The position numbers and the translations under genes were made by a program. The notes under the pieces were generated by a model. It had not been told where the DNA came from, made no database searches, and worked only from the letters and a program-made list of their open reading frames with translations. Shown here piece after piece: positions 4,843 through 32,000 of a stretch of 32,000 nucleotides of DNA. This DNA is from Candidatus Saccharimonadota bacterium (lineage in GTDB: Bacteria; Patescibacteriota; Saccharimonadia; Saccharimonadales; Saccharimonadaceae), in the NCBI GenBank assembly GCA_023898645.1, contig CP060232.1, positions 180,001-212,000 of the forward strand, in the 5' to 3' direction. The first letter of the stretch is position 1. Each line of letters starts with the position of its first letter.

Positions 4843-5061
4843 GTGTCGATCAATGAGTTGCTAGCATCTGTAAGCAATAAAGAGATGGATCGCAAGGACT
4901 TTTTGAAGTTCTCTCTGTTCGTGATTGCGGGAATGGTTGGTGTTAAGAACATGCTTTCACTGCTAGGGGGTGTTGACTTGCGCCCCGATATGACTCTTGA
5001 AAAAAAGCCGAGCAATACCGGCGGCGGGGTTGGCTATAACAGCGGAAGATACAATAGGTAG
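4843..5061 (+). CDS. Mini-protein P1 (72 aa) with Tat-like signal motif (DRKDFLKF) plus hydrophobic segment and Gly-rich tail
   Basis: GTG start at 4843, with AGGGGG 12 nt upstream. It has two paralogues in the window (25745-25954 and 30825-31028). All three share an N-terminal ~15-aa region, an M-[DT]-R-[KQ]-[DE]-F motif, an h-region and a G/Y/F-rich tail. The gene ends 6 nt before the giant gene. Confidence 0.7.
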   Translation: MSINELLASVSNKEMDRKDFLKFSLFVIAGMVGVKNMLSLLGGVDLRPDMTLEKKPSNTGGGVGYNSGRYNR

Positions 5062-5067
5062 CTTGTT

Positions 5068-8000
5068 GTGGTAGAGCAACGATTACCTGCTATTGATGGT
5101 GACGAAGGGCATTGGGGCGAGATCCTTAATCAATTTCTTTCTAAGGAGCACCACAATACTGGTCTGGACGACCCAACCAACGGTGGCCACCAAAAAATCA
5201 CCATTCAACCCGGTACCGCAGCTGCTGGCACTGCACCGCTCAAGTTCACCAGTGGCACACTCCTCACCGCTCCCGAAGCCGGAGCCATGGAATTCGCCGG
5301 AGACAATTACTACCTCACGCAAACGACTGGCACTACCCGCAAAAAGATCGCCGCTTACGACGATACCTCTGGCGCCACCGGCGACATCTACTACCGCAAT
5401 TCATCTGGCTACTTCACCCGACTCGGCGTTGGCTCTACTGGTAATGTCCTTACTGTTGCCGGAGGTATCCCTTCGTGGTCTTCTTCTATTAGCAACACGA
5501 GCACCATCACTCTCAAAGACACGAACTTCACTTTGCAAGATGACGGCAATACGACCAAGCAGCTCAAGTTTGAACTCAGTGGCATATCTGCAAGCACTAC
5601 GAGAACTCTTACAGTTCCAGACGCCAATACGACAATCGTGGGTACCGACGTCACGCAGACGTTGACGAATAAAACCATTACTAGTCCGACGATTGATGGC
5701 ACGCCAATTAGTACATTTGCTGATACGTCGGGCGGTTCTACGGTTGGGCGTAAATATCTCCTAGATATACCTATCGTTCCAGATCAAACAAGTGCTGGTG
5801 TGAGCGGCGGCGCAACTATTGTGGGCTTGCAAAATGATCTGGCGTATTTAACGGCACGAGGTGGTGCGATTACAGTTACCCAAAACAGTGTTGATATATC
5901 AAGTTCGGTGTTGCCTGAAAACTGGTTCATTCCAGGTAATTATGTCAATTTGCCTGTAGATGCAACAAGCGATGTATACGTCATCACGATCACTAGGCCA
6001 ACTAGTAATATATATAGTAATTATTGGGGGTGGGGCCAGATAGGGCTTAATTTTCGTAACGGATTCCACGCCAAAGACGTAAAGCTTGAGGTCAACTCAG
6101 GTGGCGTATGGACGACACTGCTTGATGTTACGAATGATTCATCATCTGCAAAATTTGCTCGTTATCAGACACTTAATCCGCCATACGCTGAGCAATTTCG
6201 AATTACTCTAACTAATCTAGCTTACGTCAATGTTACTGGTCTGCGAATACAGAATATTTGGGCGACGAGTTTATCGGCCAATCCGGCGGTAATGTCTAAC
6301 CTTACGTATTTACCTCGCGGAGGCGGCTCTATTATTGGTACGTCTGCGGCACCTCCAACATTTACAGCAGCAGGAAATGATTCAAATATTGGTATCAACT
6401 TGGTACCAAAGGGTACGGGAACTGTCACGGTAGGGGGAGTGGACGTCGTTACAACAACTGGTACCCAAACGCTGACGAATAAGACGCTGACAAATCCTAG
6501 AATTAATCAGATTAATGACACCAACGGAAACACCTCTATAGCACTAATTGCCACTGCTAGTGCTGTGAGCTATTTGCATGTAACCAATGCTGCCACCGGG
6601 TCGTTTGCCGTCGGAGGTGGTGTAGTACTGAGGCCAGAAAGCACCGATACAGACGTTAACTTACTCGCCAAGCCGAGAGGATCTGGGTATGTTGGTATTT
6701 CTGATTCTGCGTCTGGCTGGATCGCAAAGTTCGCACGAACCGCTGGCGCAAATGCTAATTATTGGAACATTCAAGGGAGTAGTGCAGGCGGCGCAGTGAC
6801 GCTTACTGCTGCGGGTACTGACAGCTCCATCAATGCCAATATTGTCTCCAAGGGTACGGGTACAGTCCAGGCAAATGGTGTCGATGTCGTCACGACCACC
6901 GGCACGCAAACTCTGACGAACAAAACTATCTCTGGCGCTTCTAATACCCTAAGTAATATTCCTCAATCGGCAATTACCAATCTAACTACTGACATCACCA
7001 CTGCTCAGACTACTGCCGACACTGCGCAGAAGTTCATCGATCTCAAGGCGTCCGGATTGCCTAATATAGCTTCCGATCCAAGCTGTTCGGTTCCTGAATT
7101 GTGGGCTACTAATGGTTTTGGCTCCAACTGGACGGGAGAAGTCAGCAATGAGCAGGCAGTTTCGGGTACCCAATCGCTGAAGATGACGATTACTGGATCG
7201 TCATACCCCACGCTAACCTTCCTACGTACTAAGGATGGCGATTATATTCCAGACATCGACTCGCTTCGGGTTCGCCCAGGCGACAAATTTTACATGGAAG
7301 TGTATATTCGAGCCCATGCTTCGAATGCTGTCACTAATACACTCTTTTATATTCAAGCGTGGTCTACTGACTCCACAGGGGTAAATGGCTACGCCTTCAT
7401 CAATAGTACCGGAGTCGCGCCAAGTACGAGTGGCTGGACGAAGCTAACTCATACCTATACAGTGCCTGCCGGTCGGGATCGATTGAACATAAGACTCGCC
7501 GGAAGCCTCAACAATGGGATTGGCGATATTTATTATGTCGACAATCTATTGTGGTTGAATGTTACCGATACTCAAGACATCATAGACAATGTTTATCAGG
7601 GTATAAACGGCGGATCTAGTACGTGGAATTCACTTGCTACTATGAAGACCGCTATCCAATCTCTAGTCACGCTCACAGGCACTCAGACTCTTACAAATAA
7701 GACGTTGACGTCGCCAAAGATTAATCAAATTCTCGACAGCAATGGCGTGGCTGTCCTTGGCCTTACTACTACTGCAAGTGCAGCAAACTATGTCAATATC
7801 CGCAACAAGGCTGCCGGTTCTGGTCCGTTTGTCGAGACAGCTGGTTCTGATACCGATATTCCTCTTAATTTAAGCACGAAGGGTACAGGCCTTATCCATC
7901 TTTCTCCTGGTGGTACTGCGGCGCTGCAGGTTGGATATACTGCATCATCTGTAAACTATTTTAGACTTACAGGAAGCGCAACTGGTTCTGGACCGACGCT

Positions 8001-11000
8001 TTTCGCGAATGGCACCGACACGAATGTCGACATGTTGCTGACGACTAAGGGCTCGGGTGTTGTTAAGGCAAATGGTGTTGAAGTGGTGACTGTAGACGGC
8101 ACCCAAACTTTGACGAACAAAACAATCACATCACCTGTGATTAATAGTGCTACTGGTATCTCTGTTGGTGCGGTGGTATCTCCTACTGGTTCATCGAATC
8201 CTCCTAAAATTACCTTTAATCTGACATACGGCACGAATTCGCCGGGTAGTAATGCCAACCAAAAGATTCAACTCTACGCGGGCTATGGTTTTGGCTTGTC
8301 TGCTTCTATGCTTGAATACCAAGTAGTTACTGGCGCTGTCCATCGCTTCTTCGTAGGTGGCAGCGAACGAATGTCGATAAGTGGATCTGATGTGACAATC
8401 GGTGGAGTATCCGCTGCAACTACAACAGGTACGCAAACCCTCACCAATAAAACACTGACATCACCTAAGGTAAATTCAATCTATGATACCAATGGCGCAA
8501 ACGCGCTGTATATGACACCTACAGCGAATGCAGTTAATTATACCGAGTTGCGAAACGCTCCGGCGGGAAGCGCTAATCAGATTCGAAGTATTGGAGCAGA
8601 CACGAATATTAGCATGATGTTGGTGCCTAAGGGTAGCGGAAACGTTCAAATCTATTCCAATACCGGCATTACTCCGACTATTACTGCTGTTGGTGCAGAT
8701 GCCAATCACAATCTAAACCTCGTTCCTAAAGGCACTGGCACAGTACAGGCAAATGGTGTCGATATCGTTACTATATCTGGTACACAAACTCTCGCCAACA
8801 AAACTCTGACGAGTCCAAAAATAAATGCAATACTGGATACGAATGGCGCCACATCTCTTTCGGTTGGTGCCACAGCAAGTGCTGTAAACTATCTGACGAT
8901 TAATAATTCAGCCACGTCTTTGGCACCTAATCTTACCGCGACCGGATCTGACGCGAATATCAATCTAGACCTTAATCCAAAGGGCTCGGGCAAGGTACGA
9001 ATTATCGGTGTTCCAGTAGTAACCGAAACTGGCGGAGCGACCCTTACCAATAAAACTATCTCTGCGTCGAGCAATACTATATCTAATATTGCTGTATCAA
9101 ATCTCGACGCCAGTGCAGTTGTGACGGCAGCAGAAACTATAGCAGCCAACAACAACGACACGACTATTCCAACTTCGGCGGCAGTAAAGAGTTACGTAGA
9201 TAGCACGGGTAGTGGAGATGCATCGACCAATACTGCAACGTCGGTAGATAGCGAAGTGGCTGTATTTTCTGGTACGACAGGCAAGTTACTCAAGCGCGCC
9301 ACAGGCAGCGGTGTAGCCATACTAACATCGGGTGTCCTGAGCACAGTTACGGCACCGAGTGGCACGATTGTTGGTACCACCGACGCGCAGACACTTACCA
9401 ACAAAACGCTCACAAGTCCGACGATTAATGGAGCGACAATTACTGGTACGGTTCAGCTTCCTGAGCCGAATCAACTTACTGTTTCCTCGGCAAGTTTGAC
9501 TAACAAGAATTACGCTATATCCAATGACGTTTCGATTGGTGCATATCCTGCTTTCAATGCTTTTAGTAAGTACTTGTGGCACGATATTCTCCGATTTGGT
9601 AGGTGGATTGGAACGGGCACCTATGAAACATATGCAAGCGGTTCTTGGTCGAGTGCTACTAATCCGACAATCGTTTTCGCCGGCAAGGAGTCTGGTGCGT
9701 ATACACTCGCCGACGGAGCAACAACTACTGCCGTACGATGGACGTGGAATTCCGGCAATTTGTCATATAGTGGCCTATCTTGGATAATGATTGGCTTCGG
9801 CTATGGTAGTCCGGCTCCAAGTAATGAAGTTACAGTTGAATCAGGTACAGACGGTACCAACTGGACGACCCGACATACCTCTACTACAACTGCCAATGCG
9901 ACGTTCGCGGCCTTTCCGTTGACGGGTGTGGGTGGTGATACGTATTTACGCTTGACTATCACTACTACAAACAGTCGGCCTATTTACCTCAATTCGATAA
10001 AGGGACTAACTAACAGGCCCGCAAATCAAGGTGGTGGTGCGGATACTGAGTATCCTTATGACTGGGATGCCAATCGAAATATCACTCTGGGATCAGGGAT
10101 TACTGCGCGCTCCGACGGTATTCTTAATATTGGCTCTACGACTACGACTACAGCTGCGGGCGGTATTTATTTTGGCAACGACACGAACTTATATCGCAGC
10201 GCAGCGAACACCCTCAAGACAGACGACAATCTAGCCATCGGTACATCCACTCAGACCGCCACAGCTACCCCCGCCAACATCAACCTCGGTGGTACGTATG
10301 GCAACAATACCGTTGGTACTCAGGGTAATCTCAAGTTGCGACTATACGACAATGGTAGTGGCAGCAACCATTTTGGTTTGGGTATTTCGGATTCCAAGCT
10401 GGAATATCAGGTACCGAATGGGTCTGGCCATCATTTTTATGTCAATGGCGTCGAGCGGCTCAAGATTACCAACTCTTTGGTGCAGGTTGCCGGTGCTGAT
10501 GTAGTCACCACTACTGGCACGCAGACATTGACCAACAAAACTCTGACGAGTCCAAAAATAAATGCAATACTGGATACGAATGGCGCCACATCTCTTTCGG
10601 TTGGTGCCACAGCAAGTGCTGTAAACTATCTGACGATTAATAATTCAGCCACGTCTTTGGCACCTAATCTTACCGCGACCGGATCTGACGCGAATATCAA
10701 TCTAGACCTTAATCCAAAGGGCTCGGGCAAGGTACGAATTATCGGTGTTCCAGTAGTAACCGAAACTGGCGGAGCGACCCTTACCAATAAAACTATCTCT
10801 GCGTCGAGCAATACTATATCTAATATTGCTGTATCAAATCTCGACGCCAGTGCAGTTGTGACGGCAGCAGAAACTATAGCAGCCAACAACAACGACACGA
10901 CTATTCCAACTTCGGCGGCAGTAAAGAGTTACGTAGATAGCACGGGTAGTGGAGATGCATCGACCAATACTGCAACGTCGGTAGATAGCGAAGTGGCTGT

Positions 11001-13230
11001 ATTTTCTGGTACGACAGGCAAGTTACTCAAGCGCGCCACAGGCAGCGGTGTAGCCATACTAACATCGGGTGTCCTGAGCACAGTTACGGCACCGAGTGGC
11101 ACGATTGTTGGTACCACCGACGCGCAGACACTTACCAACAAAACGCTCACAAGTCCGACGATTAATGGAGCGACAATTACTGGTACGGTTCAGCTTCCTG
11201 AGCCGAATCAACTTACTGTTTCCTCGGCAAGTTTGACTAACAAGAATTACGCTATATCCAATGACGTTTCGATTGGTGCATATCCTGCTTTCAATGCTTT
11301 TAGTAAGTACTTGTGGCACGATATTCTCCGATTTGGTAGGTGGATTGGAACGGGCACCTATGAAACATATGCAAGCGGTTCTTGGTCGAGTGCTACTAAT
11401 CCGACAATCGTTTTCGCCGGCAAGGAGTCTGGTGCGTATACACTCGCCGACGGAGCAACAACTACTGCCGTACGATGGACGTGGAATTCCGGCAATTTGT
11501 CATATAGTGACCTATCTTGGATAATGATTGGCTTCGGCTATGGTAGTCCGGCTCCAAGTAATGAAGTTACAGTTGAATCAGGTACAGACGGTACCAACTG
11601 GACGACCCGACATACCTCTACTACAACTGCCAATGCGACGTTCGCGGCCTTTCCGTTGACGGGTGTGGGTGGTGATACGTATTTACGCTTGACTATCACT
11701 ACTACAAACAGTCGGCCTATTTACCTCAATTCGATAAAGGGACTAACTAACAGGCCCGCAAATCAAGGTGGTGGTGCGGATACTGAGTATCCTTATGACT
11801 GGGATGCCAATCGAAATATCACTCTGGGATCAGGGATTACTGCGCGCTCCGACGGTATTCTTAATATTGGCTCTACGACTACGACTACAGCTGCGGGCGG
11901 TATTTATTTTGGCAACGACACGAACTTATATCGCAGCGCAGCGAACACCCTCAAGACAGACGACAATCTAGCCATCGGTACATCCACTCAGACCGCCACA
12001 GCTACCCCCGCCAACATCAACCTCGGTGGTACGTATGGCAACAATACCGTTGGTACTCAGGGTAATCTCAAGTTGCGACTATACGACAATGGTAGTGGCA
12101 GCAACCATTTTGGTTTGGGTATTTCGGATTCCAAGCTGGAATATCAGGTACCGAATGGGTCTGGCCATCATTTTTATGTCAATGGCGTCGAGCGGCTCAA
12201 GATTACCAACTCTTTGGTGCAGGTTGCCGGTGCTGATGTAGTCACCACTACTGGCACGCAGACATTGACCAACAAAACTCTGACGAGTCCAAAAATAAAT
12301 GCAATACTGGATACGAATGGCGCCACATCTCTTTCGGTTGGTGCCACAGCAAGTGCTGTAAACTATCTGACGATTAATAATTCAGCCACGTCTTTGGCAC
12401 CTAATCTTACCGCGACCGGATCTGACGCGAATATCAATCTAGACCTTAATCCAAAGGGCTCGGGCAAGGTACGAATTATCGGTGTTCCAGTAGTAACCGA
12501 AACTGGCGGAGCGACCCTTACCAATAAAACTATCTCTGCGTCGAGCAATACTATATCTAATATTGCTGTATCAAATCTCGACGCCAGTGCAGTTGTGACG
12601 GCAGCAGAAACTATAGCAGCCAACAACAACGACACGACTATTCCAACTTCGGCGGCAGTAAAGAGTTACGTAGATAGCACGGGTAGTGGAGATGCATCGA
12701 CCAATACTGCAACGTCGGTAGATAGCGAAGTGGCTGTATTTTCTGGTACGACAGGCAAGTTACTCAAGCGCGCCACAGGCAGCGGTGTAGCCATACTAAC
12801 ATCGGGTGTCCTGAGCACAGTCACGGCTCCAAGCGGTACGATTGTTGGCACCACGGACGCGCAAACGCTTACAAACAAGACTTTAACAAGCCCGACAGTC
12901 AATGGCTATACCGAGGGTGTTGTGGCTATCGGAACCGTGACAACGAGCTACACGCTTGCTATCACAAGCGGCACAGTACTCACGGCTACATTGACTGCCT
13001 CGACCGCATGTACGTTTACTATGCCTACGGCTACGGCGGGCAAATCATTTACGTTGATGCTTAAGCAAGCGGCAAGCACGGGCAACGGCACCGCAACATT
13101 CACAGGTGTGAAATGGAATGCGGCTGGCGCCCCTACGATCACGGCAACTGCAGGGAAGATGGATATACTTAGCTTCTTCTCAGACGGAACAAATTGGTAC
13201 GGATCATATACACAGGGGTATACGCCGTAA
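5068..13230 (+). CDS. Giant (2720 aa) modular surface/adhesin-like protein with tail-fibre-like modules; no signal peptide
   Basis: A single uninterrupted ORF with a GTG start. It contains many ~75-95-aa modules delimited by G-T-Q-T-L-T-N-K-T-[LI]-T-S-P. A CBM-like jelly-roll lies at ~7096-7563 (ELWATNGFGSNWTGE...YYVDNLLWLNV). Discoidin-like segments are also present (...VESGTDGTNWTT...). Motifs common in phage tail-fibre-like proteins occur (APLKFTSGTLLT.PEAGAMEFAGDNYYLT; DTNLYRSAANTLKTDDNL; TTIPTSAAVKSYVDS). The N-terminus MVEQRLPAIDGDEGHWGEILNQFL is not hydrophobic. Confidence 0.9.
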   Translation: MVEQRLPAIDGDEGHWGEILNQFLSKEHHNTGLDDPTNGGHQKITIQPGTAAAGTAPLKFTSGTLLTAPEAGAMEFAGDNYYLTQTTGTTRKKIAAYDDTSGATGDIYYRNSSGYFTRLGVGSTGNVLTVAGGIPSWSSSISNTSTITLKDTNFTLQDDGNTTKQLKFELSGISASTTRTLTVPDANTTIVGTDVTQTLTNKTITSPTIDGTPISTFADTSGGSTVGRKYLLDIPIVPDQTSAGVSGGATIVGLQNDLAYLTARGGAITVTQNSVDISSSVLPENWFIPGNYVNLPVDATSDVYVITITRPTSNIYSNYWGWGQIGLNFRNGFHAKDVKLEVNSGGVWTTLLDVTNDSSSAKFARYQTLNPPYAEQFRITLTNLAYVNVTGLRIQNIWATSLSANPAVMSNLTYLPRGGGSIIGTSAAPPTFTAAGNDSNIGINLVPKGTGTVTVGGVDVVTTTGTQTLTNKTLTNPRINQINDTNGNTSIALIATASAVSYLHVTNAATGSFAVGGGVVLRPESTDTDVNLLAKPRGSGYVGISDSASGWIAKFARTAGANANYWNIQGSSAGGAVTLTAAGTDSSINANIVSKGTGTVQANGVDVVTTTGTQTLTNKTISGASNTLSNIPQSAITNLTTDITTAQTTADTAQKFIDLKASGLPNIASDPSCSVPELWATNGFGSNWTGEVSNEQAVSGTQSLKMTITGSSYPTLTFLRTKDGDYIPDIDSLRVRPGDKFYMEVYIRAHASNAVTNTLFYIQAWSTDSTGVNGYAFINSTGVAPSTSGWTKLTHTYTVPAGRDRLNIRLAGSLNNGIGDIYYVDNLLWLNVTDTQDIIDNVYQGINGGSSTWNSLATMKTAIQSLVTLTGTQTLTNKTLTSPKINQILDSNGVAVLGLTTTASAANYVNIRNKAAGSGPFVETAGSDTDIPLNLSTKGTGLIHLSPGGTAALQVGYTASSVNYFRLTGSATGSGPTLFANGTDTNVDMLLTTKGSGVVKANGVEVVTVDGTQTLTNKTITSPVINSATGISVGAVVSPTGSSNPPKITFNLTYGTNSPGSNANQKIQLYAGYGFGLSASMLEYQVVTGAVHRFFVGGSERMSISGSDVTIGGVSAATTTGTQTLTNKTLTSPKVNSIYDTNGANALYMTPTANAVNYTELRNAPAGSANQIRSIGADTNISMMLVPKGSGNVQIYSNTGITPTITAVGADANHNLNLVPKGTGTVQANGVDIVTISGTQTLANKTLTSPKINAILDTNGATSLSVGATASAVNYLTINNSATSLAPNLTATGSDANINLDLNPKGSGKVRIIGVPVVTETGGATLTNKTISASSNTISNIAVSNLDASAVVTAAETIAANNNDTTIPTSAAVKSYVDSTGSGDASTNTATSVDSEVAVFSGTTGKLLKRATGSGVAILTSGVLSTVTAPSGTIVGTTDAQTLTNKTLTSPTINGATITGTVQLPEPNQLTVSSASLTNKNYAISNDVSIGAYPAFNAFSKYLWHDILRFGRWIGTGTYETYASGSWSSATNPTIVFAGKESGAYTLADGATTTAVRWTWNSGNLSYSGLSWIMIGFGYGSPAPSNEVTVESGTDGTNWTTRHTSTTTANATFAAFPLTGVGGDTYLRLTITTTNSRPIYLNSIKGLTNRPANQGGGADTEYPYDWDANRNITLGSGITARSDGILNIGSTTTTTAAGGIYFGNDTNLYRSAANTLKTDDNLAIGTSTQTATATPANINLGGTYGNNTVGTQGNLKLRLYDNGSGSNHFGLGISDSKLEYQVPNGSGHHFYVNGVERLKITNSLVQVAGADVVTTTGTQTLTNKTLTSPKINAILDTNGATSLSVGATASAVNYLTINNSATSLAPNLTATGSDANINLDLNPKGSGKVRIIGVPVVTETGGATLTNKTISASSNTISNIAVSNLDASAVVTAAETIAANNNDTTIPTSAAVKSYVDSTGSGDASTNTATSVDSEVAVFSGTTGKLLKRATGSGVAILTSGVLSTVTAPSGTIVGTTDAQTLTNKTLTSPTINGATITGTVQLPEPNQLTVSSASLTNKNYAISNDVSIGAYPAFNAFSKYLWHDILRFGRWIGTGTYETYASGSWSSATNPTIVFAGKESGAYTLADGATTTAVRWTWNSGNLSYSDLSWIMIGFGYGSPAPSNEVTVESGTDGTNWTTRHTSTTTANATFAAFPLTGVGGDTYLRLTITTTNSRPIYLNSIKGLTNRPANQGGGADTEYPYDWDANRNITLGSGITARSDGILNIGSTTTTTAAGGIYFGNDTNLYRSAANTLKTDDNLAIGTSTQTATATPANINLGGTYGNNTVGTQGNLKLRLYDNGSGSNHFGLGISDSKLEYQVPNGSGHHFYVNGVERLKITNSLVQVAGADVVTTTGTQTLTNKTLTSPKINAILDTNGATSLSVGATASAVNYLTINNSATSLAPNLTATGSDANINLDLNPKGSGKVRIIGVPVVTETGGATLTNKTISASSNTISNIAVSNLDASAVVTAAETIAANNNDTTIPTSAAVKSYVDSTGSGDASTNTATSVDSEVAVFSGTTGKLLKRATGSGVAILTSGVLSTVTAPSGTIVGTTDAQTLTNKTLTSPTVNGYTEGVVAIGTVTTSYTLAITSGTVLTATLTASTACTFTMPTATAGKSFTLMLKQAASTGNGTATFTGVKWNAAGAPTITATAGKMDILSFFSDGTNWYGSYTQGYTP
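8795..12831 (+). repeat. 1737-bp (579-codon) in-frame tandem repeat, ~2.3 copies, essentially identical
   Basis: The copies span 8795-10531, 10532-12268 and 12269-12831 (partial). Antisense shadow ORFs recur at exactly +1737 (8889/10626/12363; 9192/10929; 9322/11059; 9524/11261). The one copy1/copy2 difference I located is G9773 vs A11510 (SYSGLSW vs SYSDLSW). Confidence 0.97.
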
Positions 13231-22379: not shown

Positions 22380-22382
22380 AAA

Positions 22383-22702: not shown

Positions 22703-22729
22703 TTGGCACTCTGGTTGCACGAGTGCTAA
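22703..22729. promoter_or_regulatory. CIRCE operator (HrcA binding site): TTGGCACTC-N9-GAGTGCTAA
   Basis: It matches the CIRCE consensus TTAGCACTC-N9-GAGTGCTAA at 17 of 18 arm positions and lies directly upstream of hrcA-grpE. Confidence 0.92.
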
Positions 22730-22743
22730 ACATACGCTATAAT
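22715..22743 (+). promoter_or_regulatory. hrcA promoter TTGCAC-N17-TATAAT overlapping CIRCE; predicts a leaderless mRNA
   Basis: The -35 is at 22715-22720, inside the CIRCE spacer. The -10 TATAAT is at 22738-22743. The ATG at 22750 lies 6 nt after the -10, where transcription would be expected to start. Confidence 0.6.
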
Positions 22744-22749
22744 TACAGC

Positions 22750-24251: not shown

Positions 24252-24337
24252 ATTTTTTTGACTCTCCTATTGCCATACTATCATAAACAATATACTATGG
24301 AAGAGTTAAAACAATAAGTGAGGGAGTGTAGGGAGCC

Positions 24338-24523
24338 ATGTTTGGAATAGGGACACCTGAATTAATCATTATCCTGCTGATCGTCCTGTTGTTGGTCGGT
24401 GGAAAAAAACTGCCAGAACTAGCACGTAGCGTAGGCCAGTCAATGCAAGAACTGCGCAAGGGCATGAGTGATGGGTCAAAGAAAACAACAACACGATCTA
24501 GCGAAGAAGCAGAAGAAGCCTAG
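24338..24523 (+). CDS. tatA: Twin-arginine translocase subunit TatA/E
   Basis: MFGIGTPELIIILLIVLLLVGGKKLPELARSVGQSMQELRKG is the canonical TatA TM plus amphipathic helix. SD GGGAG lies upstream. Confidence 0.93.
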   Translation: MFGIGTPELIIILLIVLLLVGGKKLPELARSVGQSMQELRKGMSDGSKKTTTRSSEEAEEA

Positions 24524-25744: not shown

Positions 25745-25954
25745 ATGCAACCGATAAAGACGCAAGTGAGTGATTTGCTAAACAAGCAAATGGACCGACA
25801 GGATTTTTTGAAACATGTCGGAATTGGCTTAATTGCGATTACTGGGCTAAGCAGCGCACTTCGTTTTCTGTCTATTCAACAGCACAAAGTTGAAGGTGGG
25901 TACGGTAGCGCCGCATACGGTGGCAGCGAAGACGGCAACTCGAGTCGTTTGTAA
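25745..25954 (+). CDS. Mini-protein P2 (69 aa) with Tat-like motif (DRQDFLKH), paralogue of P1/P3
   Basis: The sequence is MQPIKTQVSDLLNKQMDRQDFLKHVGIGLIAITGLSSALRFLS...EGGYGSAAYGGSEDG.... SD AAGGAAA lies upstream, and a strong terminator follows. Confidence 0.7.
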   Translation: MQPIKTQVSDLLNKQMDRQDFLKHVGIGLIAITGLSSALRFLSIQQHKVEGGYGSAAYGGSEDGNSSRL

Positions 25955-26036: not shown

Positions 26037-26936
26037 ATGCAATGTTTGGAGACAATGTTTAAAATGACGATACAAAAAATAGCGGTTGCACTTATCTTTT
26101 CTGTTGCGTCGACGCTTGCGTCGGTGCCATCAGTCGCCACCGCTGCAGGTGTGGGATACGGACTCTCGGTTTCGCCGCCGCGACAAACACTTGATTTGGC
26201 TGCAGGGTCGACGAAAACGGCGTTTTTTACCGTTAAAAACGCTACCGACAAGTCAATGGTAGTAGATTTGAGCGTAAAAGAATTTTCGGTGAGTGATAAA
26301 ACGTACGACTACGTTTTTAGCAAACCCGAACACGAATGGGTAAAGACGCGGCTCGAGCAACTAACATTGCAACCAAATCATGCCGCGAAAATCATCTATG
26401 ACGTAACAGTCCCTGAAAGAGCAAAACCGGGCGGGTACTATTTTGCACTTTTTGCGAGCACAAAAGTCAATGGCGCCGCCTTGCCCGGTACGGAACAAGT
26501 AGCAACGTTGCTCTATGTTACTGTCGACGGCAAGCTTGTGCGCACGAGTGTATTGCAAAATGATTCCGTGCCGTGGTTTGTTATGGGAGACGAAATTCCG
26601 TATAAATTTAGCGTGAAAGACACGGGCAACGTGTATTTCACGGCGTATTTTTACGGAAAGGTGAACGGACTTTTTGTCGACCAGCCTGCCTCTGGCACGA
26701 GCCATATAGTAATGCCCGGCGCAACGCGAACGATATCTGGTTCGGTACCCACGCCCTTTTTGCCGGGAGTCTATACGATGACCTATGGATACAAAGTAGA
26801 CTTCGCAAACATTGAAATCGTTAAAACGACCTTGGTAATATTTATTCCTCCGTGGTCAATTGCCGCGTCTGTGTTCGTGCTGCTTCTTGCCTTGTGGTTG
26901 AGGCAAAGGCGATATATAAAGAAAGAGCAATCTTAG
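26037..26936 (+). CDS. Cassette B, type-1 anchor protein (paralogue of 14754-15653)
   Basis: Possible starts are 26037, 26055 and 26064. The signal is ...MTIQKIAVALIFSVASTLASVPSVATA. Internal motifs are KEFSVSDKTYDYVF, RAKPGGYYFALFAST and LLYVTVDGK. The C-terminus is WSIAASVFVLLLALWLRQRRYIKKEQS. Confidence 0.85.
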   Translation: MQCLETMFKMTIQKIAVALIFSVASTLASVPSVATAAGVGYGLSVSPPRQTLDLAAGSTKTAFFTVKNATDKSMVVDLSVKEFSVSDKTYDYVFSKPEHEWVKTRLEQLTLQPNHAAKIIYDVTVPERAKPGGYYFALFASTKVNGAALPGTEQVATLLYVTVDGKLVRTSVLQNDSVPWFVMGDEIPYKFSVKDTGNVYFTAYFYGKVNGLFVDQPASGTSHIVMPGATRTISGSVPTPFLPGVYTMTYGYKVDFANIEIVKTTLVIFIPPWSIAASVFVLLLALWLRQRRYIKKEQS

Positions 26937-26938
26937 AA

Positions 26939-27496
26939 TTAAAGATTTTTTGCGGCGACCGTGTATACAACTCCCATCGTGTAGCTGCCGGCGCCTTTTG
27001 TGATGTCGGTCAAAACACCATATGTTACATTTGTGGCATCGCCACTTGTGTAGGGGCCATTGGCATCTTTGATAAGCGCAGGAGTGGTGAGCATTCCCAC
27101 GTAGTTCGATGAACCGTCGGTATTGTAGCCCCAAGTATTTACTGTTAACGCGCTCGGACTGCCATTGTTGCTCGTTGGTATTACGTAGGTTCCGTTTGTC
27201 ATGTCTGTACTGTTTGGACAATACACGTATAGTCGATACCCAACAACGTCGTTGGTAGTGACTGTTACTGTATGCGATGCCGAACCGGAATATTGGGATC
27301 CTCCGGGCGTGAGGTTCATCGACACGTTACCTCCAAGGGAAATCGTTAAACTCGTTAATGAGCCAAAAGGAGCATTTGCGTCGAATACACCTTGGCCAAA
27401 TGGTGAAGCGTGTACGGGGAATTGCATCATGATACTGCCGGCTGTCATGAGCCCTGCCAAAAAGATGTGAGTTTTAGTTACCGTAAAGCGCATCAT
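26939..27496 (-). CDS. Cassette B, small secreted protein (185 aa; paralogue of 15650-16189)
   Basis: The signal is MMRFTVTKTHIFLAGLMTAGSIMMQFPVHA. The mature part contains ...HTVTVTTNDVVGYRLYV...NTWGYNTDGSSNYVG...AGSYTMGVVYTVAAKNL. It is convergent with the previous gene, with a 2-nt gap. Confidence 0.85.
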   Translation of the reverse strand: MMRFTVTKTHIFLAGLMTAGSIMMQFPVHASPFGQGVFDANAPFGSLTSLTISLGGNVSMNLTPGGSQYSGSASHTVTVTTNDVVGYRLYVYCPNSTDMTNGTYVIPTSNNGSPSALTVNTWGYNTDGSSNYVGMLTTPALIKDANGPYTSGDATNVTYGVLTDITKGAGSYTMGVVYTVAAKNL

Positions 27497-27529
27497 TACT
27501 AGTAACTATACTATATCTGTACTATACTT

Positions 27530-28516
27530 ATGCTTGTGAAGCGCGTCCACAAGGCGCTCAAACTGCGCCACCACAAACACACAGGAAAATTTCTCCATCA
27601 CCGCCACACGTCTTATCGGGTATTGTTTTTTTTGATGCTTATGCCCATTGGTATGTTGGCGCTGGTTGGGCAATTGGTGAGAGCAAGCGACTATGAAGTC
27701 ACGGCATCTGTGCCTGCCACAATTCCAAGAATCGCCCCAGTCATTACTTCTCCGGCGAGCGGGCTAACAACGACAAACAGTCAGATCACCGTGCGAGGTA
27801 CGTGCCCATTGGGGCACGTCGCAGGAATCGTAGCAATATACGAAGGAAAGAAATTATTAGGCGCACAGCCATGTACTGCAGACGGCACGTTCTCGGTACC
27901 AATTACATTGTCTTACGGTCATCATGTGCTTGTCGCTACCGTAATGGCAATTACAAAAGAAGTTGGTTTGAGTAGTAGCCCTCTGATTGTTACGCGCGAA
28001 CATCCTTTTTCACTTACTATCAATACCCCACTTGAGCCAACGCCAATAATAATAAAAACTGACGATCCGTTTATCATTATCGGATCAGATGGTAACGCAA
28101 CGTGGAAGGGAAGTTTCAAAGGGGGTACTCGTCCTTATGAAGTCACGGTGGACTGGGGAGACGGCAGTACGAGTAAATATATTGGGGCGGATACGTCTGA
28201 GCAGGTGTTTAGCCATCACTATGCAAAGCAACAGGCATATACTGTCATTATTAAAGCCAGCGACGCTAAGCACAACTCAGTCACCCTATATAGCGTTGCG
28301 TTAACACAAGGTTTGCAGCAGGTAGCAGTGGTAGAGGGCGGCATGTGGACAATTTCGCCATCGCTAGAAACTGTGCAGCGGTATCTTATCTATACGTATG
28401 TCATTACCTTATCGAGCCTGATGTTTATGTGGTATTTGCAGCATGGTCGATTGCTGGTGTGGTCGGTGGTCCGCAACAAAAGACACGTCCGGCATCGTCG
28501 ACCTCGGTCACACTAA
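27530..28516 (+). CDS. Cassette B, doubly anchored His-motif / Ig-like / PKD-like protein (paralogue of 18375-19517)
   Basis: The N-terminus is ALKLRHHKHTGKFLHHRHTSYRVLFFLMLMPIGMLAL. The PKD-like signature is EVTVDWGDGSTS...HHYAKQQAYTVIIKASDAKHNSV. The C-terminus is a TM segment followed by RNKRHVRHRRPRSH. Confidence 0.85.
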   Translation: MLVKRVHKALKLRHHKHTGKFLHHRHTSYRVLFFLMLMPIGMLALVGQLVRASDYEVTASVPATIPRIAPVITSPASGLTTTNSQITVRGTCPLGHVAGIVAIYEGKKLLGAQPCTADGTFSVPITLSYGHHVLVATVMAITKEVGLSSSPLIVTREHPFSLTINTPLEPTPIIIKTDDPFIIIGSDGNATWKGSFKGGTRPYEVTVDWGDGSTSKYIGADTSEQVFSHHYAKQQAYTVIIKASDAKHNSVTLYSVALTQGLQQVAVVEGGMWTISPSLETVQRYLIYTYVITLSSLMFMWYLQHGRLLVWSVVRNKRHVRHRRPRSH

Positions 28517-28579
28517 TGCATTGTGCTTGTGTTATGACACCGCTTACGTTATACTGGCACCAAAGTTATATGTACATTC

Positions 28580-29653
28580 ATGCTGAAAGAGAAAACCGGG
28601 CGTATCTCGATGAGAATTAACCTGCATAGCATCAAAAAAATACACGTCGCAGTAGCTGCGTTGTTTGTTTTTAGTGTCGTAGTTTCTCCACTTGTTGCGC
28701 GCAATGTCTTTGCAGCAGCCACGCAATCATTCGTACGGTTTGATCGTATGAAAATAAGCACGGCTACCACTGGTACTGTGTGCTTTATGTCGGCAACCAC
28801 GGCAACTGAAGCAACCGTAAAAGTAACGTTCCCTACAGGATATACGCTGAGCGGTACTTTAGGAGATTGGACTGTCGATACGACCAACCTCGCGTGGCCA
28901 GCTGGCGGTACGGCATGGCCGAGTATCAATACCGCCACAAATGTTACTGGCCAAGTGGTTACATTCCCGAGTGGCGATTTGACTGTCGGCACCCTCTACT
29001 GCTTTAACTGGACAAACTCCGCTGCGGTACAAACCAAGTCGAGTGCTACAAGCTCGAACACTGGCCAGATCGACACATACGATAGCGGCCCAGCTCTTAT
29101 TGACACGGCGCCTTATTCTACGGCAACGATTACCGACGATCAGATTGTCGTTACCGCGACCATCCCGACTACGTTTTCGTTTGCTTTGAGCGGAAACACC
29201 GATGCCCTCGGTACCATTACGACTGCCGCTGTTGCATCGAGCCCAACTCCTCGCACGGTGACAATTGACACGAATGCATTTAACGGCTGGATGGTATGGG
29301 CAAAAGATTCGAACGCCGGCCTAAAATCAGTGAACGCCGGCAACTATCTTATTGGGTCTACAACCCCAGGTTCGAATAGTACGCTGTCGGCTGGCACTGA
29401 GGGCTACAACACAGGTGTCACTCAATCACAGGTTGGCGGTGCCGGTACAATTAGTGTGGCAGCTGCCTTTGTGGGCGGTCTTGCTGGTAAGGGTGGTGGG
29501 CTCGACACATCACTACGTACATTGGCATCATCAGACGGTACTGCCGATACTGCAGTTTTGACTCTTACGAACAACGCAGCTATCAAGGGAACTACTCCAG
29601 CAGCTTCAGACTACACCGATACGATTACCGTTATCGGTGCAGGATTGTTCTAA
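28580..29653 (+). CDS. Cassette B, 357-aa secreted Thr/Ser/Ala-rich protein (paralogue of 16235-17308)
   Basis: The start is 28580 or ATG 28610 (MRINLHSIKKIHVAVAALFVFSVVVSPLVARNVFA). Internal segments are ...DDQIVVTATIPTTFSFALSG...NGWMVWAKDSNAGL.... It ends AASDYTDTITVIGAGLF. Confidence 0.85.
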   Translation: MLKEKTGRISMRINLHSIKKIHVAVAALFVFSVVVSPLVARNVFAAATQSFVRFDRMKISTATTGTVCFMSATTATEATVKVTFPTGYTLSGTLGDWTVDTTNLAWPAGGTAWPSINTATNVTGQVVTFPSGDLTVGTLYCFNWTNSAAVQTKSSATSSNTGQIDTYDSGPALIDTAPYSTATITDDQIVVTATIPTTFSFALSGNTDALGTITTAAVASSPTPRTVTIDTNAFNGWMVWAKDSNAGLKSVNAGNYLIGSTTPGSNSTLSAGTEGYNTGVTQSQVGGAGTISVAAAFVGGLAGKGGGLDTSLRTLASSDGTADTAVLTLTNNAAIKGTTPAASDYTDTITVIGAGLF

Positions 29654-29695
29654 AAGTTTACGGTTTCTAGCTTGTGTACATTGGCTAGATGTATA

Positions 29696-30769
29696 ATGAG
29701 ATTAATGATTTTAAAGAGGGGTAGCAGATTGTATTTTCTGATTGGCTTGTTGCCAGTCATGATTGGTGTGCTCGCCATGGCTCCACTCAGTGTATATGCC
29801 GCCAAAACACCTTCCGATTTTTCACTGTTGGTGACGCCGTCTCCGATTGTGGCAACTTTGAAGCCCGGCGAATCGAGAGATCTAGAGCTCAAAATACGCA
29901 ATGGCTCTACAGGCACCGAGGCATTAAAGATAGTGCCTCGAAGGTTCACTATAAATGACAAAACTGGGCAGGTATTAATAGACGACAAAACTGCTCCAGA
30001 TATTGCACAGTGGATACGTTTTAGCAAACCGACATTCACTGTAGAGTCAGGGGAGTGGATGACCGAAAAAATCCATATTGCGTTACCCAAAAACACAGGA
30101 TTCAGCTACTCATTCGTGTTGCTTATTCAAAGAGCGCAGGATACAACTGTCATAGAATCGGGCCGATTAATTAAAGGTTCGGTCGCGGTGTTTACTCTTA
30201 TAAATGTAGATCGTCCTGGCGCTGTGCGTAGCCTGACGGTAGAGAAATTCGTGGCGTCGCAATCAATGTACGAATATTTGCCTGCCTCGCTAACAATGCA
30301 GTTTAGGAATAACGGTAACACGATCATTCAACCGTTTGGCAATATTTTTATTCAACGAGGCAGCAATGATGCGTCGCCGATTGCAACCCTCCCAGTCAAT
30401 AACCAAGCCGGATATATTTTGCCAGGGAGTAATCGAGTGCTAACGGCCCAATGGTCAGGCGGTTTTCCTTTATTTAAAGCAACAACCGCTTCCGATGGTA
30501 GTCAAAAAACGAGCGAAGAGTGGGACTGGTCAAAATTGTCTCAATTTCGTATAGGTGCTTACACGGCAAAGCTAGTGGCAGTATACAACGATGGGTTGCG
30601 CGACGTTGCTATTCAAAAAGAAACCTCATTTTGGGTGTTGCCATGGAAAATATTGTTAGGAGCGGTGGCCGTAATAGCAATTCTTTTATTGGGAGTGTGG
30701 AGTATTATCCGCAGGATATTCAAACTATTTAGGCGACCCAAACGCAGCGAGCAAAAACCAGAAGAGTAA
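29696..30769 (+). CDS. Cassette B, type-2 anchor protein (paralogue of 17396-18400)
   Basis: The ORF track opens at TTG 29672, and ATGs follow at 29696 and 29705. The signal is MRLMILKRGSRLYFLIGLLPVMIGVLAMAPLSVYA. An internal motif is NNGNTIIQPFGNIFIQ. The C-terminus is FWVLPWKILLGAVAVIAILLLGVWSIIRRIFKLFRRPKR. Confidence 0.82.
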   Translation: MRLMILKRGSRLYFLIGLLPVMIGVLAMAPLSVYAAKTPSDFSLLVTPSPIVATLKPGESRDLELKIRNGSTGTEALKIVPRRFTINDKTGQVLIDDKTAPDIAQWIRFSKPTFTVESGEWMTEKIHIALPKNTGFSYSFVLLIQRAQDTTVIESGRLIKGSVAVFTLINVDRPGAVRSLTVEKFVASQSMYEYLPASLTMQFRNNGNTIIQPFGNIFIQRGSNDASPIATLPVNNQAGYILPGSNRVLTAQWSGGFPLFKATTASDGSQKTSEEWDWSKLSQFRIGAYTAKLVAVYNDGLRDVAIQKETSFWVLPWKILLGAVAVIAILLLGVWSIIRRIFKLFRRPKRSEQKPEE

Positions 30770-30824: not shown

Positions 30825-31028
30825 GTGAAAGAAACAAAAGAACTGACAAGTGAGCTGTTTGCAAAGGAAATGACCCGCAAGGAATTCGTGCAGCTTGCAG
30901 GTATGGCAATCATCGCTTTGTTTGGCGTTAATAATTTTCTTTCGTTTCTTCTTAAGAGCGGTGGCAAGGCTATGCATTCCAATGCACAAGCCGGTCGTGG
31001 CTTTGGTTCGAGCAAATTCGGGGTATAA
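30825..31028 (+). CDS. Mini-protein P3 (67 aa) with Tat-like motif (TRKEFVQL), paralogue of P1/P2
   Basis: GTG start, with AGGGGA 8 nt upstream. The sequence is MKETKELTSELFAKEMTRKEFVQLAGMAIIALFGVNNFLSFLLKSGG...GRGFGSSKFGV. Confidence 0.68.
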   Translation: MKETKELTSELFAKEMTRKEFVQLAGMAIIALFGVNNFLSFLLKSGGKAMHSNAQAGRGFGSSKFGV

Positions 31029-31043
31029 AACCGTAATTACACA

Positions 31044-31072
31044 TTGCTCTCACGCTTTCGCGAGGGTATACT
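31044..31072 (+). promoter_or_regulatory. Candidate promoter TTGCTC-N17-TATACT driving a long leader of the second giant gene
   Basis: The -35-like hexamer is at 31044-31049 and the -10 at 31067-31072, with an exact 17-nt spacer. The architecture matches the lepA and hrcA candidates. Confidence 0.4.
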
Positions 31073-31078
31073 AAACAC

Positions 31079-31367
31079 AGACCTTCGAATAGGGGGTCAA
31101 TTCACGTATCAATAACTGAACAAAGGGGTTAATGAAACAGCGTACACCACTGTTTTACATTAAGCGTACCCGTACAGCTTCTCTGTGCACCCCTGTTCAA
31201 ACGATCTGGCCGATTGCAATCGGTCTTGCTCAGTTTGGCTACGGGTTAGGAGCTAGGAGTTGGGAGTTAGGAGTTAGTGGGGTCATCTCTTGGCTCGTTG
31301 CTATTATTTACCAAATCCCAATCACTATTTCCCATCTCCCAATTGACCTCCAAAGGAGGGCACCGTA
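31079..31367 (+). ncRNA. Putative structured 5' leader (cis-regulatory RNA candidate) of the second giant gene
   Basis: The interval contains a 14-bp perfect palindrome, CCGATTGCAATCGG, at 31210-31223. SD-like heptad repeats (TTAGGAGC TAGGAGT TGGGAGT TAGGAGT TAGTGGGG) span 31246-31282. They can pair with a C-rich tract at 31317-31344 for about 20 bp. CCTCC-AAA-GGAGG (31347-31359) folds the real SD into a hairpin. Confidence 0.35.
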
Positions 31368-32000
31368 ATGCCTACTCCGCAACGCCTCCCCATAGTCAAC
31401 TCCGACGACGGTGTTTGGGGTGATATTCTTCGCCAATACCTTGCGAAGGAGCACTTCAACGACGATACCGACAATGCCATCAACGGCGGTCACCAAAAAA
31501 TCACCATCCAGCCGGGCACCGCAGCGGCAGGTACCGCTCCGCTCAAGTTCACCAGCGGTACCCTGCTCACCACTCCCGAAGCCGGAGCCATGGAGTTTGC
31601 CGGCGATAACTACTACCTTACGGACACGTCTGGCCCGACTCGCCGCAAGATTGCCGCCTACGACGACACCTCTGGTGCCACCGGCGATATCTACTACCGC
31701 AATTCGTCTGGCTACTTCACACGACTCGGCATTGGTTCTACTGGCAACGTTCTTACTGTTGCCGGAGGTATCCCATCGTGGTCTTCTTCTATTAGCAACA
31801 CGAGTACCATCACTCTCAAAGACACAAACTTCACCCTGCAAGATGACGGCGATACCACAAAGCAGCTCAAGTTTGAACTCACTGGCATCGCTACTGGCAC
31901 TACTCGAACGTGGTCATTCCCCAACGCCGACTCGGCCTTTGTTGGTACCAATACGGCGCAGACGCTGACAAATAAGACGATCCAGGCCCCGACAATCACC
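31368..32000 (+). CDS. Second giant tail-fibre-like surface protein, N-terminal 211 codons (partial, continues past window)
   Basis: This ORF is not in the supplied track because it has no stop in the window. The ATG at 31368 is preceded by AAAGGAGGG. My translation is MPTPQRLPIVNSDDGVWGDILRQYLAKEH...GGHQKITIQPGTAAAGTAPLKFTSGTLLTTPEAGAMEFAGDNYYLT...TAQTLTNKTIQAPTIT. It is collinear with, and mostly identical to, the first ~210 aa of the 5068 gene. Confidence 0.9.
   Translation, partial: MPTPQRLPIVNSDDGVWGDILRQYLAKEHFNDDTDNAINGGHQKITIQPGTAAAGTAPLKFTSGTLLTTPEAGAMEFAGDNYYLTDTSGPTRRKIAAYDDTSGATGDIYYRNSSGYFTRLGIGSTGNVLTVAGGIPSWSSSISNTSTITLKDTNFTLQDDGDTTKQLKFELTGIATGTTRTWSFPNADSAFVGTNTAQTLTNKTIQAPTIT

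Follow-up and report, generated by a model that had tools for sequence, protein, structure and literature searches.

The window analysed here, a stretch of 32,000 nucleotides (nt) from a Candidatus Saccharimonadota bacterium (GenBank assembly GCA_023898645.1, contig CP060232.1, positions 180,001 to 212,000 of the forward strand), carries genes of three families, namely mini-proteins of about 70 amino acids (aa; P1, P2 and P3), phage-like fibres (giant-1 and giant-2, the former followed by the two smaller genes sm1 and sm2) and two five-gene cassettes (A and B) related to the Pam pilus operons of the Candidate Phyla Radiation (CPR), grouped in two islands at either side of a housekeeping core that includes tatA and tatC of the twin-arginine translocation (Tat) system. 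A preceding sequence-only reading had given the gene order as P1, giant-1, sm1, sm2, cassette A, core, tatA, tatC, P2, cassette B, P3 and giant-2, and the listing of open reading frames (ORFs) together with family scans reproduced this order. The same reading had described the islands as mirrored and inverted, which had to be abandoned, as the blocks lie on the plus strand, are permuted, differ in their cassette gene order and show no inverted repeats, hence an inverted duplication was rejected; the minus-strand genes are the two small pilin genes, the adk-like gene and a gene for a 75-aa protein, while the major island blocks are all on the plus strand. At the DNA level, similarity between the islands is limited to the 5′ ends of the giant genes (78%). 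The statement that every part of the left island has a paralogue in the right one holds by BLASTP or profile comparison for the mini-proteins, the giants and the cassettes, but not for sm1 and sm2, which are unpartnered within the window, and the proposed twofold co-occurrence of mini-protein, fibre and cassette is likewise correct in its counts (three mini-proteins and, by motif search, exactly two ORFs with an RLP head), except that P2 adjoins tatC and cassette B rather than a giant gene.

The three mini-protein genes lie on the plus strand and all match the NCBIfam model NF038009, P1 (72 aa, 4843–5061) with an E-value of 1.3e-5, P2 (69 aa, 25745–25954) with 1.6e-17 and P3 (67 aa, 30825–31028) with 8.1e-10, and a family hidden Markov model (HMM) detects exactly these three in the window at E 1e-15 to 1e-23 (1.5e-15 for P1 and 9.8e-20 for P3). 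P1 and P3 represent a fibre-coupled subtype and P2 a Tat-adjacent subtype. P1 has the segment EMDRKDFLK, a hydrophobic stretch and a tail that ends in GYNSGRYNR, P2 begins with MDRQDFLKH and carries GYGSAAYGG plus a tail, and the tail of P3 ends in GRGFGSSKFGV; P1 is 32% identical to P3 and 37% to P2 (BLASTP). The scores against NF038009 are 63.5 bits for P2, 38.8 for P3 and 25.3 for P1, all under the cut-off of 100, while a relative from a locus with the type I layout described below (L018) reaches 139.5 bits, above the cut-off. From the 139.5 bits of this relative, NF038009 was evidently built on Saccharibacteria proteins encoded directly after tatC, and judged by these scores P1–P3 are homologous to NF038009 and fall outside its narrow subfamily. 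With the members of the model they share a fold-free build, the length of about 70 aa, the segment K-x-M-D-R-K-D-F-L-K, the hydrophobic stretch and the GYG..YGG tail, and P2 directly follows tatC as the model members do; in contrast, the window proteins score at 25–64 bits, P1 and P3 form a fibre-coupled sub-branch that the model does not capture, and the family name carries no function.

In an exhaustive profile search the family comprised 1079 cluster representatives, the best 150 of which are all 48–104 aa long, and the family is therefore taken as always being a mini-protein; no covalent passenger was found among these 150, nor was a fusion to the fibre head seen among the best 120 head homologues. 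The family motif [M]-D-R-[K/R/Q]-D-F-L-K keeps the spacing of the Tat consensus R-R-x-F-L-K, with RK at the twin position in 150 of 181 members, RR in 17 and RQ in 14 (R-K in P1 and P3, R-Q in P2). It is followed by an uncharged run, 12 or 16 residues long in 134 of the 181 members, and the first charged residue after this run is K or R in 167 (92%). In locus L058, a lipoprotein-like actinobacterial ORF of 474 aa uses the string MDRKDFLKH with its h-region as its N-terminal signal. The C-terminal tail is short, carries a G-[FY]-G...[FY]-G motif and separates the two subtypes, since fibre-coupled copies end exactly in ...G-[FY]-G-x-G-K-Y-G-[AV] while Tat-adjacent copies have G-Y-G-S-S-A-Y-G-G plus a tail. 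From these features the mini-protein looks like a stand-alone Tat signal peptide without a passenger.

The fibre gene giant-1 (2720 aa, 5068–13230, plus strand) begins with a GTG codon and encodes a GN/RLP head (approximately aa 1–140), tail-fibre-like repeat units (TQTLTNKT), a tandem repeat and a C-terminal knob, and the window also holds the N-terminus of giant-2 (31368–32000, plus strand), which has the same head, runs past the window end and extends to at least 874 aa in loci L061 and L065. The N-termini of the two giants are 80% identical over 206 aa (BLASTP). The tandem repeat of giant-1 has a unit of 1737 bp (579 aa) that is present in about 2.6 copies at roughly 8755–13000 with 95–100% identity, a pattern that indicates a recent expansion, and public short-read contigs with P2, P3 or cassette genes end inside the giant genes, breaks that were probably caused by the repeats. 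No Pfam or NCBIfam family matched the giants; there is a weak match of giant-1 to a phrog tail fibre family, and its interior domains match minor tail proteins of Gordonia and Mycobacterium phages at E 1e-9 to 7e-11. Downstream, sm1 (13194–13877, plus strand; its true start probably lies downstream of 13194) matches phrog_553 (E 5.7e-17) and phrog_2106 (E 5.4e-16) and shows 33% identity to minor tail proteins of Mycobacterium phages across 82% of its length (tblastn), and sm2 (13825–14520, plus strand) is regarded as its paralogue because it matches the same two families (phrog_553, E 1.4e-15; phrog_2106, E 3.8e-9). Taken together, the interior of giant-1, sm1 and related RLP-headed proteins have matches among the minor tail proteins of phages of Gordonia, Mycobacterium, Arthrobacter, Rhodococcus and Streptomyces; Actinobacteria are the known hosts of Saccharibacteria.

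No phage homologue was found for the head domain, which has 793 homologues, the best 120 of them short proteins of 137–343 aa. Its motif, M-x-x-Q-R-L-P-x-V-x-G-D-D-G-x-W-G-D-I-L-N-Q-F-L, starts within the first 10 residues in 111 of these best 120 and was not found in the other 9, and the head is conserved at 60–73% between species, far above the rest of the protein. Giant size turned out to be exceptional rather than conserved, as most genomes have a head-only protein of 160–300 aa after the mini-gene, followed by separate variable proteins; the giants are members of a large RLP-head family that have grown by internal tandem duplication. Neither the giants nor sm1, sm2 or the variable proteins between the head gene and the pam genes have a signal peptide (no hydrophobic leader was seen), and the space upstream of the head genes is taken up by the mini-gene. 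In many genomes, among them those of loci L037, L040, L034, L042, L060 and L022, one or two proteins of about 450 aa are encoded between a head protein of 160–170 aa and the pam genes; they start with M-I-I-L-K-A-T-T-E-T-L...I-D-Y-S-V-S-Y-A-D-I-T, have no signal peptide and are not found in the window.

With the minor tail proteins and tail fibres of actinophages (PHROG 553, 2106 and 38058; Gordonia, Mycobacterium and Arthrobacter phages) the fibres share modules that are 33–74% identical over 55–180 aa, a modular build with hypervariable C-terminal parts and the lack of a signal peptide. They differ in that the window genes are chromosomal, lying among lepA, pam, rocD, hrcA, grpE and tat with no other virion genes nearby, and in the non-phage head of the fibres and their coupling with a membrane mini-protein and with pilus operons.

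Cassette A (14718–19517) consists of a PamC/PamD-like chaperone gene (A1, 14718–15653, plus strand), whose product has a signal peptide, two Ig-like domains and a C-terminal transmembrane (TM) helix, a small single-domain, PamT-like pilin (A2, 15650–16189, minus strand; NF058581, E 0.005), a Pam pilin (A3, 16235–17308, plus strand), a second chaperone-like protein with a C-terminal TM helix (A4, 17396–18400, plus strand; weak WxLIP_PGBD match, E 0.004) and a PamR-like anchor (A5, 18375–19517, plus strand). Cassette B (26037–30769) holds the same kinds of genes in the order chaperone, small pilin, PamR, pilin, chaperone, instead of chaperone, small pilin, pilin, chaperone, PamR as in cassette A, with the small pilin on the minus strand in both: B1 (26037–26936, plus strand) is chaperone-like and 33% identical to A1, B2 (26939–27496, minus strand) is a small pilin 47% identical to A2, B3 (27530–28516, plus strand) is PamR-like and 39% identical to A5, B4 (28580–29653, plus strand) is a diverged pilin and B5 (29672–30769, plus strand) is chaperone-like and 24% identical to A4 (all BLASTP). 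The pilins A3 and B4, both of 357 aa, are related at the profile level only, with an hhalign probability of 93% (E 2.8e-7) spanning the linker and the start of the C-terminal domain. A3 matches the Pam pilin C-terminal domain model NF058581 with 167 bits (cut-off 55, E 2e-49), and A5 and B3 match the PamR model NF058578 over nearly its full length with 169 bits (E 1.3e-49) and 109 bits (E 1.6e-31), both under the equivalog cut-off of 300; C-terminal hydrophobic helices are seen in both sequences. The alignment of the small pilins is confined to the C-terminal domain of the pilins (hhalign 84%, E 7.6e-6), as in the proposed tip pilin, and the PamT equivalog model did not match them. A1, A4, B1 and B5 share a signal peptide, a C-terminal TM helix and a two-domain length, while their family matches are weak (fn3_5, as in A1, and WxLIP_PGBD), and a search of the Protein Data Bank (PDB) with the chaperone-like profile returned no PapD or FimC match, only noise and EfmWxLIP1 at E 0.4. 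Every Pam component has a signal peptide or hydrophobic leader, whereas the proteins of the fibre sub-module have none.

The Pam system was described in Ca. Mycosynbacter amalyticus and is represented in NCBIfam by NF058578 (PamR), NF058579 (PamT) and NF058581 (pilin C-terminal domain); in the model put forward for it, two membrane-anchored chaperones, the PapD/FimC-like PamC and PamD with a signal peptide and a C-terminal TM helix, polymerise pilins by donor-strand exchange, with the small pilin as the tip and the RbmA-like PamR as the base anchor (Troman et al., bioRxiv 10.64898/2026.03.03.709456). Going by the family matches, the cassettes are CPR Pam pilus operons and new members of this system. 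They share with the Pam system of M. amalyticus the pilin with its C-terminal domain, the PamR-like anchor, two chaperone-like proteins, the small pilin, the restriction to CPR and a nearby tail-fibre-like gene, but are minimal five-gene versions with one major pilin each instead of PamA, PamB and PamE, occur as two diverged operon types of different order in one locus, and include PamR matches under the equivalog cut-off and a pilin (B4) that was recognised by profile comparison only. The order of cassette B recurs in loci L001, L002, L079, L081 and L086. No usher like that of the outer-membrane Pap/Fim chaperone-usher systems was found among the window ORFs by Pfam and NCBIfam scans, which agrees with the model of the preprint for a cell without an outer membrane. 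The suggestion that the cassette serves to export the giant was not upheld, as the cassette is a self-contained, Sec-dependent pilus operon predicted to work by donor-strand exchange.

A further likeness concerns the WxL loci of Firmicutes, which encode WxL proteins, DUF916/WxLIP proteins and a small LPXTG protein: 7 of 15 Pam chaperone-like proteins from the window and related loci have sub-threshold matches to Pfam WxLIP_PGBD (DUF916), the best at E 2.5e-6. The chaperones share the layout of signal peptide, Ig-like domain and C-terminal TM helix, and a small protein with a sortase-like signal is encoded nearby in both; in contrast, the matches are all under the Pfam threshold, the profile search against the PDB was not significant (EfmWxLIP1, E 0.4) and no WxL domain was detected in the pilins. 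There may be a distant relationship between the Pam operons of CPR bacteria and the WxL loci of Firmicutes, on which the Pam preprint is silent.

Between the islands lie tatA (61 aa, 24338–24523, plus strand; TIGR01411 with 56.1 bits at a cut-off of 53.9) and tatC (24468–25661, plus strand; PF00902, E 5.6e-49; TIGR00945, 159 bits), the start codon of the latter being uncertain because the ORF overlaps tatA. The sequence-only reading had placed tatA at 24046–24261, an ORF that proved to be the antisense shadow of the minus-strand gene at 24024–24251. P2 starts 84 nt past the end of tatC, whereas P1 and P3 lie apart from the tat genes. The C-terminus of TatC is extended by about 150 aa (residues ~246–397) that include two copies of R-x-[IVM]-D-G-[FM]. 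Among 50 related TatC proteins, 44 have tails of 99–196 aa in which this motif recurs or, in the type II clade introduced below, M-D-I ... F-S-D-I takes its place, which points to lineage-specific interactions. In about 1.1 Mb of related loci, a sample too small to define Tat exports, no canonical RR-x-FLK substrate was found except for the first helix of TatC itself.

The sequence-only reading had proposed a co-occurrence and neighbourhood analysis of the three families, and this analysis showed the association, in several arrangements, in many genomes and metagenomes of Saccharimonadia, with A-order and B-order cassettes both seen elsewhere. One genome per species was scanned with the mini-protein pattern, which gave 60 loci, almost all from Saccharimonadales metagenome-assembled genomes (MAGs), 59 of which encode a mini-protein of 61–90 aa. 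Nearby in these 59 loci are tatC (43), tatA (40), lepA (33), hrcA (28), grpE (27), a fibre head (22) and pam genes (about 14). The proximity to Tat, cautiously raised before as a possible part of the system, is therefore a conserved feature, as tatC adjoins the mini-gene in the 43 loci and the NCBIfam name of the family is 'Tat system-associated'. Two layouts prevail, namely type I (lepA-tatA-tatC-P-hrcA-grpE) and type II (lepA, tatC and tatA on the other strand, P, head gene, variable proteins, pam operon, in some cases adk, then hrcA and grpE); in the type II clade, tatCA and the P-fibre genes are divergently transcribed from a shared spacer of about 200 nt. The right island of the window is repeated in L001 and L002, and HKST-UBA63, a relative of the window organism, has the same two-island layout, split over two contigs. 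The core adk-hrcA-grpE-tatA-tatC-P is present in L014 without any islands, and because of this and of the HKST-UBA63 layout the islands are accessory and inserted at either edge of a core that is itself conserved (lepA / adk-hrcA-grpE-tatA-tatC-P).

An independent sample consisted of metagenome loci found via the fibre head, 36 of which have a complete head start and upstream sequence. The mini-gene lies directly upstream of the head in 29 of the 36, with a gap of 2–8 nt, usually 3 nt, in 25 of them, and pam genes are present in 12 of 15 head-found loci of at least 5 kb, either downstream in A-order, upstream in B-order or as divergent operons. At least four layouts keep the adjacency (P-fibre-pamA; pamB-P-fibre; pam on the minus strand, divergent from the fibre; lepA-fibre-pamA-P), and 26 of 33 RLP-headed ORFs lie within 1 kb of a mini-gene, with a clustering near tat as well, including in loci without pam genes. 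The co-occurrence of mini-protein, fibre and Pam is thus conserved across Saccharimonadia, and since the three families travel together across genomes and metagenomes, and a related species has the same two-island layout, a mere local segmental duplication is ruled out, in line with what the sequence-only reading had favoured. Its wider claim, that the families form one larger system, is supported insofar as they belong together and are not neighbours by chance; that they act as one machine is what we infer.

The junction between mini-gene and head gene is particularly uniform, in that 13 of 18 genome pairs have a TAA or TAG stop codon of the mini-gene, exactly 3 nt and the ATG of the head gene, while two pairs have 1–2 nt; in the window, the stop codon of P1 lies 6 nt before the GTG start of giant-1, in the same frame. 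Judged by this spacing, the two genes are translationally coupled, and the frequent in-frame state follows from the fixed 3-nt spacer. Readthrough or fusion of mini-protein and fibre was considered and rejected, given the TAA and TAG stops, two pairs that are out of frame and the lack of any fused protein among the best 120 heads and the best 150 mini-proteins. The spacer between P3 and giant-2 (31029–31367) is an unusual case, as it has 339 nt and is common only to L001, the closest relative, while the usual gap of 3 nt is found in L002. It holds a doubtful 78-aa ORF (31132–31368, plus strand) with two hydrophobic stretches, which the sequence-only reading had counted as a 'leader' and part of the island; it matches no family and is confined to very close relatives, with tblastn finding it in L001 only. 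The spacer has no Rfam match, and Rfam, promoter and terminator scans, in which it was included, gave nothing above background.

How these parts might work together can be considered against the background of the Tat pathway, which moves folded complexes of which one subunit bears the signal, as in the hitchhiker export of the HybO/HybC hydrogenase and of DmsA/DmsB in E. coli. Starting from the observed homologies, conserved neighbourhood, tight coupling and absence of signal peptides in the fibres, we infer a physical interaction of mini-protein and fibre, a Tat route and a cooperation with the pilus. In the mechanism proposed, the pilins, which have signal peptides, would cross the membrane via Sec and pili would be assembled there. 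The fibre would be a tail-fibre-like adhesin made of a lineage-specific head and actinophage minor-tail modules, with sm1 and sm2 as two further minor-tail-like proteins. The tail of the mini-protein would bind to the head of the fibre while the two emerge from one ribosome, the Tat-like N-region of the mini-protein would lead the fibre, folded and probably oligomeric, to TatAC in the manner of a hitchhiker, and the mini-protein would then stay in the membrane as the fibre anchor. The pili might give reach, while the phage-like fibre tips might give host specificity. The link to Tat is suggested by the Tat-like spacing, the basic residue, the adjacency to tat, the signal-less fibres and the long-tailed TatC together.

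These parts of the proposal are not equally probable. That Pam pilus, phage-like fibre and mini-protein form a functionally linked attachment module is likely, while the hitchhiker step, that is, fibre export via mini-protein and TatAC, is put forward tentatively and is more doubtful than not; for the whole statement, that the window holds two copies of a conserved three-part host-attachment module that works by the mechanism proposed, we see the chances as evenly balanced. The most specific formulation, a 'split Tat signal' in which a free-standing signal of about 70 aa with a docking tail carries signal-less fibres of actinophage modules through TatC/TatA and then holds them on the surface, is a speculative one. 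With the known hitchhikers it would share a signal-less folded partner carried by a signal-bearing partner and adjacent, co-translated genes, but here the carrier is approximately a signal peptide alone, it has R-K or R-Q rather than R-R, and the fibre cargo is very large, hence the comparison is one of working and not of membership.

Several observations speak against the proposal. A 2720-aa, probably trimeric fibre would be far larger than any Tat cargo known to us. P1–P3 lack the consecutive arginines of S/T-R-R-x-F-L-K, the Tat-signal models of Pfam and TIGRFAM do not match them, and the hydrophobic stretch, with a mean Kyte-Doolittle value of 1.68, suffices for a plain membrane anchor inserted by Sec/YidC. 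Seven of the 36 fibre heads have no mini-gene upstream, many genomes with the type I layout have tatA-tatC-P without a fibre or pam genes within 10 kb, and in Microsaccharimonas the mini-gene stands alone beside yebC and ruvCAB; because of the type I and Microsaccharimonas loci, the mini-protein must have a fibre-independent role. The type II loci form one clade with 77–89% LepA identity, so that part of the synteny may be inherited. AlphaFold models of the head domain (from a 33-sequence alignment) and of a concatenation of P1 and the head were uninformative (pLDDT 59 and 41 among the two), and Foldseek returned no match to the AlphaFold models at E ≤0.001.

The fibre-independent occurrences lead to a different explanation, in which the mini-protein is a general accessory or substrate of TatAC with no specific bearing on the fibres, and variable surface islands, and with them fibres and pili, preferentially insert at the tat-P locus, between lepA and hrcA. 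The type I loci, which carry neither fibre nor pam genes and from which NCBIfam named the family, the core without islands in L014 and the existence of orphan mini-genes are all in its favour, yet P1 and P3 accompany fibre genes at a distance from tat, 81% (29/36) of the independently found heads have a mini-gene directly upstream, the fibre-coupled subtype has a C-terminal end of its own and the pairing of mini-gene and fibre survives several gene arrangements; we regard this explanation as unlikely, though worth serious consideration. It is also conceivable that the fibre is a pilus-associated adhesin whose head docks on the tip, shaft or PamR base of the Pam pilus, with the mini-protein as a docking factor and an exit other than Tat. 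While 12 of 15 fibre heads have pam genes no more than 10 kb away, and a head far more conserved (60–73% between species) than the rest of the protein is what would be expected of a docking domain, RLP-headed proteins and mini-genes cluster with tat also in loci without pam genes, and the fibre has no signal peptide although every Pam component has one. The Pam preprint can be read both ways, as a tail fibre-like protein is central in its pam neighbourhood network, a point made in a single sentence, whereas the filaments seen by cryo-electron microscopy (cryo-EM) held PamA and PamB only (bioRxiv 10.64898/2026.03.03.709456). On this evidence, docking to the pilus appears quite improbable.

Explanations without a functional module fare worse. 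If the neighbourhood were simply an inherited order in streamlined genomes, with no functional link among the three families, matches confined to one class, Saccharimonadia, would be expected, as would the limited evolutionary span indicated by LepA identities of 63–91%, and both are found; the adjacency nevertheless persists through at least four rearranged layouts and a duplication, and the 3-nt junction is kept while the mini-proteins have diverged to approximately 30–45% identity, which makes such a passive origin very improbable. Even less credit can be given to the largely refuted idea that giant-1, sm1, sm2 and the 895-aa protein described below are tail remnants of a prophage or tailocin and that the left island gave rise to the right one by local segmental duplication: the PHROG tail-protein matches, the actinophage matches and the 80% identity of the giant N-termini would fit, but capsid, terminase, portal, tube and sheath genes are all missing, many genomes have the genes at the same fixed position between housekeeping genes, no phage homologue of the head domain was found, and the cassette paralogues are 24–47% identical, differ in order and occur, each type, in other genomes. 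The linked attachment module thus remains our preferred reading of the locus.

Upstream of lepA (2872–4722) lies a gene for a phage-like 895-aa protein (127–2814, plus strand) with three tandem repeats of about 190 aa and without a signal peptide, which matches phrog_14065 (E 4e-51) and a minor tail protein family (E 3e-9); because a related domain occurs in L079 between the fibre head gene and the pam operon, this protein may belong to the same class of phage-like adhesins. Cassette A is followed by a pair of genes at 19603–21702, the ornithine aminotransferase-like rocD (19603–20790, plus strand) and a pentein/DDAH-like gene (20791–21702, plus strand), which precede the adk-like gene (21699–22379, minus strand), hrcA (22699–23457, plus strand) and grpE (23473–23979, plus strand), all assigned by Pfam and NCBIfam. 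Neither gene of the pair had a match in any of the 60 loci found via the mini-protein, and outside the window the two were seen together only in contigs from the same or a near-identical organism and in HKST-UBA63, the nearest relative at species level. The pair has the look of an insertion specific to this lineage and tied to arginine or ornithine metabolism. As regards the source organism, P2 is identical to H6797_00955 and gene 5 of cassette A to H6797_00905, both from a MAG labelled 'Candidatus Nomurabacteria' by NCBI, whose LepA has 85–88% identity to Saccharimonadales MAGs.

Between grpE and tatA, the minus-strand gene at 24024–24251 encodes a conserved protein of 75 aa, identified by translation and tblastn, which is kept free of stop codons at the same position in 10 related loci, where the plus-strand frame has stops. 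The protein has two Cys, the motif S-A-Y-G-A-G-D-F-G, G-A-P-N-T-G, a TM helix and K-F-R-K-K, a layout that resembles a sortase sorting signal, and has itself no signal peptide. Its YG-rich motif recalls the tail of the Tat-associated mini-proteins.

In the literature searched, no paper links Saccharibacteria with Tat-associated mini-proteins or with phage-like fibres, apart from the one sentence of the Pam preprint on the tail fibre-like protein, and this preprint mentions neither Tat nor the mini-protein (bioRxiv 10.64898/2026.03.03.709456). The mini-protein family itself was already known from NCBIfam, under a name based on its neighbourhood only. As far as this literature goes, the new findings are the coupling of mini-gene and head gene as a pair, the use of the RLP head as an N-terminal tag common to actinophage-like modules, the existence of two conserved orders of the operon and the recurrent link of pairs, heads and operons to tatAC.

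CPR bacteria account for a large part of bacterial diversity, and the way in which they, Saccharibacteria among them, recognise their host bacteria and stay attached to them is one of the central open questions about this group. The Pam pilus became known as recently as 2026, and its operons are now placed in a module with fibres and a Tat-signal-like mini-protein, which raises hypotheses on the genes that set host range, on the route by which signal-less fibres reach the surface and on the retention of Tat with an unusual TatC tail in reduced genomes, all of which can be tested in genetically tractable Saccharibacteria. If the split signal were true, it would represent a new way to export and anchor large adhesins and would extend the known functions of Tat, and it would mean that an epibiont reuses receptor-binding parts of the phages of its own host.

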